Below are positions 10,636 to 10,675 of a stretch of DNA of 13,771 bases, piece after piece. Below the pieces are notes generated by a model. That model worked only from the letters and a program-made list of their open reading frames with translations. It did no database searches and was not told where the DNA came from. The DNA is from a virus (lineage: Duplodnaviria > Heunggongvirae > Uroviricota > Caudoviricetes), in IMG/VR virus record IMGVR_UViG_2778261544_000002; one strand, written 5' to 3'. Positions within the stretch are counted from its first letter, which is position 1, and every line of letters starts with the position of its first letter. The translations under genes and the position numbers were made by a program.

Positions 10636-10645
10636 TCTCCGGACG

Positions 10646-10667
10646 AAAAAAAACCGCCGAAGCGGTT
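10646..10667 (-). terminator. Terminator-like hairpin between G-T and the tape measure gene
   Basis: Minus strand AACCGC-UUCG-GCGGUU (6-bp stem, UUCG tetraloop) followed by U-rich run (plus 10646..10653 is A8). The stem is short, so it may be a weak or partial terminator. Confidence 0.5.
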
Positions 10668-10675
10668 ATGTTGAC

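Follow-up and report, generated by a model that had tools for sequence, protein, structure and literature searches.

The closest described counterpart of the element analysed here is found in phage HK97 (GenBank AF069529), whose record carries a 'putative terminator' at 8398..8422, after the gene-15 'moron product' and before the tape-measure gene H, and a terminator is also annotated at this site, the junction between T and H, in HK75 and HK633. Within the single late operon of HK97 seven sense-strand terminators are annotated, which are after the portal gene, after the major head gene, between U and V, after V, before H, between K and I, and before J, and two of these sites directly precede the genes of the most abundant proteins, one being upstream of the major tail gene V and the other, with the protease gene in between, of the major head gene. 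According to the literature, gene 15 is the founding moron. A moron brings a promoter and a terminator of its own, and in HK97 gene 15 is located between the chaperone and the tape-measure genes (PMC3594210). In the P22-like phage L, which belongs to another phage group, Rho-independent terminators have likewise been predicted inside an operon under a single Q-type antiterminated promoter, although at another gene boundary, and the roles of such intra-operon late terminators were stated to be 'not known'; the two options offered, partial termination or the stopping of spurious transcription begun without antitermination, are the same as those considered here and are unproven there too (PMC8022706). 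Phage lambda has a homologous tail module with the gene order G, T (reached by a -1 frameshift) and H, but in lambda T and H overlap by 8 nt, the gap between U and V is 7 nt, and there is no hairpin at either place. In phage T7, the hairpin terminator T-phi is in the structural gene cluster after the major capsid gene 10, and partial read-through at T-phi lowers the expression of the downstream tail genes. At T-phi the enzyme concerned is T7 RNA polymerase, no processive antitermination is involved, and the terminator follows the gene of the most abundant protein, whereas the hairpins described below and those of HK97 also precede abundant genes.

The stretch of 13,771 nucleotides that was analysed, referred to here as the window, is the tail portion of the late operon in an HK97-like, lambdoid prophage of E. 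coli and it is read on the minus strand (Table 1). This locus is 96-99% identical to phage Evi and to ten other E. coli phages, and it was found in 902 of 5426 complete E. coli genomes, in every case in the chromosome. The head module of phage Evi is of the HK97 type, and the Q antiterminator genes annotated in this phage lie upstream of those for lysis and structural proteins; a Q gene is also annotated in HK97. At the end of G, directly before its TAG stop, there is an A8G run (GUU AAA AAA AAG UAG; 10981..10989, minus strand) across which the T frame is open (...KKVEFPGMRFLMM...), and this run is likely the -1 frameshift site that yields the G-T fusion. In lambda most ribosomes end at the G stop and few slip into the T frame. 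As few ribosomes would slip at the A8G run to reach the T stop, H must be initiated independently.

Table 1. Features of the late-operon segment in the window, in order of transcription
Feature	Position	Strand	Remarks
U	12128..12472	minus	
U-V sister element	12081..12107	minus	hairpin ACCCGCC-GCT-GGCGGGT (12107..12091), then TTTTTATTTT
V (major tail gene)	11364..12068	minus	PGAP start ATG 12068
G	10978..11364	minus	stop TAG 10980..10978
T frame	10676..10966	minus	reached via -1 frameshift (G-T tail assembly chaperone fusion)
TGA stop of T frame	10676..10678	minus	8 nt upstream of the T-H hairpin
Hairpin 5' arm, AACCGC	10662..10667	minus	
UUCG tetraloop	10658..10661	minus	
Hairpin 3' arm, GCGGUU	10652..10657	minus	
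T8 (U8) tract	10646..10653	minus	first two bases inside the stem, six T beyond it
Shine-Dalgarno core, GGAG	10637..10640	minus	7 nt upstream of GTG 10629, 1 nt upstream of ATG 10635
In-frame upstream ATG	10633..10635	minus	start in the sequence-only reading and the Evi record; specific to the window allele
H (tape-measure gene)	7402..10629	minus	conserved start by alignment, GTG 10629; product (M)ATLRELIIKISANS...
M, L, K, I		minus	between H and J, in the order listed
J	1537..5016	minus	
Terminator after J	1500..1517	minus	GGCACCA-GAAA-TGGTGCC + T6, strong
lom-like gene	870..1469	minus	3' of J
Terminator after lom-like gene	823..842	minus	GCCCGCC-GGTTCA-GGCGGGC + T6, strong

The minus strand at the T-H junction reads TGA (10678-10676), GUCAACAU, AACCGC, UUCG, GCGGUU, UUUUUU, CGUCCGGAGA, AUG-AGU-GUG, and the hairpin occupies the 46-nt gap from the T-frame stop (10676) to H. 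A sequence-only reading of this DNA had described a UUCG hairpin, AACCGC-UUCG-GCGGUU, with a U8 tract directly upstream of the tape-measure gene, and this description held when it was examined: the same letters were read at 10667..10652, the T8 tract was confirmed at 10653-10646 with two of its bases within the stem, and the hairpin fills the gap between the T stop and H. The stem is 6 bp with four G-C pairs and its calculated energy is -8.0 kcal/mol alone and -8.5 kcal/mol in context. When strict terminator criteria were applied (a perfect stem of at least 6 bp, at least 4 G-C pairs, a loop of 3-6 and a T-run of at least 5), four sites were found in the window compared to a mean of 0.037 in 300 dinucleotide shuffles, in which the maximum was 1. 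All four are intergenic and on the coding strand, and they are at U-V, at T-H, between J and lom, and after lom. Because there are four strict sites in the window compared to 0.037 per shuffled window, the T-H hairpin is not a chance feature but is real. A loose consensus scan gave 24 terminator-like sites in the window, T-H included, compared to 12.6 +/- 3.2 in the shuffles. Intrinsic terminators have a G+C-rich stem-loop (stem of about 5-14 bp, loop of 3-8 nt) and a U tract of about 7-9 nt directly 3' of the stem, and the T-H element has both; it is also co-oriented with the genes, it is non-coding and follows a stop codon, and at homologous positions its structure is conserved despite changes in sequence. 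Judged from its sequence, the element thus carries every feature of an intrinsic (Rho-independent) terminator. The length of the T-run is polymorphic, with 7, 8 or 9 T, among near-identical prophages (L012, L029, L033, L034, L072).

The HK97 terminator is the positional counterpart of the window hairpin. The N-terminal 150 aa of the HK97 tape-measure protein are 90% identical to those of the window H, and at the HK97 site, too, a G+C-rich stem closed by a 4-nt loop is followed by a T-run and, within about 20 nt, by a Shine-Dalgarno sequence and start. It differs in that its stem, ACCCGCT-ATCA-AGCGGGT, is unlike that of the window and that it ends a 62-aa YebO-like moron ORF, whereas in the window there are just 8 nt from the T stop to the hairpin and the terminator part is present alone, with no moron.

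When the region 10400-12300 was scanned against Rfam (E <= 1), no match was found at the T-H hairpin, and the best E-value, 0.5, was located away from it. In the same scan the U-V hairpin (12086..12189, minus strand) gave sub-threshold matches to isrK (18 bits, where the gathering score is 50) and to Pseudomonas P9, which most likely reflect mere resemblance to a terminator hairpin, and there was one further, unrelated match. Near the T-H junction a search for sigma-70 promoters gave one 9/12 match only, which is inside H (10626..10598), and the promoter-like sites in the window are fewer than in the shuffles (5 compared to 9.8).

Related T-H junctions were collected from 80 close IMG/VR loci, from 9 usable species-representative genomes (the scan of genome contigs gave 10 loci) of Klebsiella (two species), Phytobacter, Leclercia, Pantoea, Enterobacter (two), Brenneria and Pseudomonas floridensis, from reference phages, and from 120 loci retrieved by a degenerate H-start DNA motif that is uninformative on the upstream region. 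In 207 of the 212 loci with the H-start motif, a G+C-rich hairpin is followed by a T-run that ends 13-24 nt ahead of the start codon; in this sample the loci are non-independent and some contigs recur. Among the exceptions are L107 and L119, where the T-H gap is 12-22 nt and too short for a hairpin, and L090 and L192, where the T tract has decayed. The hairpins comprise 53 distinct sequences and 19 distinct 5-bp cores. Across the 53 distinct hairpins each stem position is occupied by 3-5 canonical pair types, and when the arms were swapped between hairpins a full 5-bp stem was obtained in only 28 of 342 combinations. The arms were compared directly, anchored on the loop; a MAFFT alignment of 16 junctions was anchored on the T tract, its 5' arms were out of register because the loop lengths differ, and neither RNAalifold nor a covariance model was based on it. 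Of the 53 distinct hairpins 10 have a UUCG loop, more than have any other, and the energies in the family range from -7.5 to -17.5 with a median of -10.3 kcal/mol, which places the -8 of the window at the weak end. By this comparison the T-H element is conserved in structure and position but not in sequence, a pattern that marks an RNA or terminator element under selection. The terminator at T-H reaches prophages of Klebsiella, Leclercia, Enterobacter, Phytobacter, Brenneria and Pseudomonas, and it is absent in Vibrio phage Pm34 (gap of 19 nt) and Burkholderia phage phi1026b (gap of 13 nt). The HK542 record annotates the U-V and the post-V terminators, and in its 34-nt T-H gap we found an unannotated hairpin, GCCCGC-GGCT-GCGGGC followed by T6 (L097:1966-2001). 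This hairpin type is the commonest insert-free type in the survey (19 loci), and in its insert-free variants pairing is kept through G-U wobbles, as in GCTCGC/GCGGGC and GCCCGC/GCGGGT, while the loops change freely.

The best explanation, to which we assign a probability of about 0.6, is that the T-H element is a Rho-independent terminator signal that stops RNA polymerase not modified by Q and that it is bypassed in lytic growth. Polymerase without the Q modification, whether from transcription in the prophage state, from spurious transcription or from a moron promoter, would terminate at the T-H hairpin and stay out of H-M-L-K-I-J, and in lytic growth Q-modified polymerase from the late promoter would read through it. 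H would then be translated by independent initiation at the GGAG-7nt-GTG site just downstream of the U tract. Polymerase modified by Q resists intrinsic terminators, and late transcription in this prophage should be terminator-resistant because its close relatives, Evi and HK97, encode Q. Read-through with Q is rarely complete and, therefore, there may be some attenuation at T-H in lytic growth. Termination at T-H, its efficiency and read-through by Q-modified polymerase are what we infer. In the window, a convincing sense-strand promoter upstream of T-H that could be the source of un-antiterminated transcripts was not found.

A possible alternative, to which we give clearly less weight, is that a fraction of the lytic late transcripts ends at the hairpin, or that the hairpin shields processed transcripts from 3' exonucleases, whereby the V-G-GT message would outlast or outnumber the H-J message and the output of the tape-measure protein would be lowered. 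This broadens the proposal of the sequence-only reading, modelled on T-phi of T7, that partial termination sets the stoichiometry of the tape-measure protein, and in that original form it is disfavoured. The position of the hairpin after the V-G-T block and the low copy number of H are in its favour, and so are the HK97 terminators that directly follow the major head and major tail genes and the weakness of the hairpin (-8 kcal/mol), which fits partial action; partial termination is also among the possible roles that have been named (PMC8022706). What is difficult to reconcile with a step down in expression, besides the resistance to intrinsic terminators of polymerase modified by the Q that close relatives encode, is the sister element between U, which stops at 12128, and V, which starts at ATG 12068. 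Hairpin, U tract, GGAG and start codon (ATG) follow one another there as at T-H, and yet the gene directly downstream is V, whose product is the most abundant protein of the tail. The records of HK97, HK75 and HK542 mark a terminator at the equivalent site, and a hairpin is conserved at this junction without a moron in these three phages and in Aeromonas AsXd-1, Vibrio Pm34 and Burkholderia phi1026b. A terminator upstream of the protease and major head genes, as in HK97, is likewise in the wrong place for a stoichiometric step down. Since terminators are upstream of the most abundant proteins, a simple scheme of terminating to lower the downstream protein does not fit, and lambda with its homologous tail module, Pm34 and phi1026b all do without a hairpin at T-H. 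It was also noted that the longest V ORF (251 aa, start at 12119) passes through the U-V hairpin, whereas the PGAP start is ATG 12068, and that the two strong terminators downstream of J bracket the lom-like ORF as a moron-style cassette.

The other part of that proposal was weak initiation of H, which had been based on a GGAG only about 1 nt from the start codon, a suboptimal distance. This did not stand up because the poor spacing of the Shine-Dalgarno sequence is an artefact of taking ATG 10635 as the start. The alignment shows that the window GTG at 10629 corresponds to the ATG start of all other lineages: BP-4795, HK75/HK97 and seven other lineages open with ATG-GCN-ACN-YTN (M-A-T-L-R-E-L-I-I-K) at this codon, and in a nine-lineage alignment the N-terminus of H, MATLRELIIKISANS, is invariant with its first 15 residues unchanged. 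By alignment, the conserved start of H is thus GTG 10629 (MATLRELIIK...), and ATG 10635 is probably not the main start. In the motif-based sample of 117 usable loci GTG is confined to the window-type allele, with 16 loci; ATG occupies the aligned codon in all of the remaining hairpin types listed for that sample, and also in three close variants of the window allele. PGAP and ON470580 start H at 10629 and the Evi record alone starts it at 10635. In a mis-spaced ribosome-binding site the distance between the Shine-Dalgarno core and the start in use would fall outside the range of about 4 to about 12 nt, and at the real start GTG 10629 the spacing of 7 nt is normal and comparable to that of V, where GGAG is followed by 6 nt and then ATG. 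GTG is a somewhat weaker start codon than ATG, and its presence in place of ATG in the window allele, which favours a lowered output of H, could be the sole remaining source of somewhat weaker initiation. A U-rich leader usually helps initiation, which together with the normal spacing goes against a step down in the expression of H, and a U-rich leader beside a well-spaced Shine-Dalgarno sequence is compatible with the independent initiation of H that is part of our preferred explanation, a stop for polymerase without Q.

The T-H junctions were also compared for the presence of inserted genes. An insert of 125-1688 nt is present at T-H in 52 of 110 loci and there is none in the other 58 (gap of 51 nt or less), and, as read from the sequences, the terminator is present in 51 of the 52 insert-bearing loci and in 56 of the 58 insert-free loci. 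The inserted ORFs have a G+C content of 0.30-0.43 and belong to several unrelated families, which include YebO-like proteins (gp15), a lipoprotein family, other lipoproteins, a zinc-ribbon membrane protein and, in Pseudomonas, an HNH protein. Morons are extra ORFs with a promoter of their own, set between genes that adjoin each other in other phages and usually atypical in G+C content, and no such ORF is present at the window junction. The T-H junction is a hotspot for low-G+C inserted genes in the relatives; inserts were located at L021:1054-1452, at about 1619-1955 in L089, L091 and L092, and at L095:1164-1880, and they are also present in L074, L084, L006, L088 and L093. The membrane zinc-ribbon insert matches Pfam Zn_ribbon_3 and the small lipoprotein family has no Pfam match, while YebO-like gp15 homologues and, in a Pseudomonas prophage, an HNH-domain protein were seen among the other inserts. 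In E. coli, L021 carries the window allele together with a zinc-ribbon moron of 114 aa. Its identity to the window is 95.5% up to 10713 and 100% from 10667, the first base of the hairpin, onward, and it is unrelated over the end of T and the insert. A promoter-like TTGACT...TATTGA is found in L021 just after the T stop.

A more doubtful proposal goes beyond a stop for unmodified polymerase and holds that the T-H terminator is a selected, moron-independent fixture of this lineage of tail modules that serves as a landing pad for incoming promoter-plus-ORF cassettes, with the U tract possibly being a standby or S1-binding leader for an uncoupled initiation of H. If this is true, the prophage could express a cassette with no transcription running on into the tail genes, and it would account for the finding of at least 6 unrelated insert types exactly at T-H in about half of the relatives. 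The window hairpin could be an empty docking site, or it could be a remnant of the zinc-ribbon moron.

That it is a neutral relic, a terminator now without function that stayed behind when the promoter and ORF of a moron were deleted, is unlikely. AACCGC-TTCG-GCGGTT, the identical hairpin, does end the zinc-ribbon membrane-protein moron in L021 and its homologues in L089, L091 and L092 (Leclercia, Enterobacter), and there are relatives with a tight T-H junction (gaps of 12-22 nt) and no hairpin. However, the 56 insert-free loci that keep the hairpin include at least 4 unrelated hairpin types, substitutions in insert-free loci preserve pairing, and no change is seen in the stem or loop across about 60 near-identical prophage copies, whose flanks and T-run length do vary. 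The U-V sister hairpins, moreover, occur without any moron out to Vibrio and Burkholderia phages. Because the hairpin is kept in at least 4 unrelated insert-free types and in pairing-preserving variants, it is probably maintained for itself, and the terminator in the window is an orphan copy, with no moron, that would be kept for its own sake.

It is very unlikely that the element is a translational switch in which, in the read-through RNA, CUUCGGCGG (loop and 3' arm) re-pairs with UCG-CCGGAG, hides the Shine-Dalgarno sequence and throttles H, for although this alternative fold is predicted to be stabler than the terminator hairpin (-10.4 compared to -8.5 kcal/mol) and to make up 0.85 of the ensemble of a 49-nt segment (10627..10675, minus strand), it cannot form in relatives with other hairpins or leaders, nor in those with the identical hairpin and a ACGTCTGGAG leader, the 71-nt fold is no stabler than shuffles (z = -0.68), and with only the upstream 55 nt included the minimum-energy fold retains the terminator hairpin. 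This fold over the Shine-Dalgarno sequence is specific to the window allele, is not conserved in relatives, and was set aside as incidental. A conserved competing structure, as expected of an attenuator or riboswitch leader, was not found among the relatives, and no Rfam family matched.

The T-H hairpin is, therefore, an ordinary terminator-type element of a known and already annotated kind, and the window hairpin is identified as the terminator that has been carried in HK97 annotations since 2000. A further result is a corrected start codon for this tape-measure gene, which is widespread in E. coli prophages and for which the Evi record differs from PGAP and ON470580. The natural alleles with and without a moron, which are identical downstream of the hairpin, would provide a clean system for distinguishing insulation from attenuation. 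What is modestly new is that, in the loci compared, the T-H terminator persists in about 97% of the related loci independent of the presence of a moron. From this retention with or without a moron it appears that selection acts on the intra-operon terminators of Q-controlled late operons as such.
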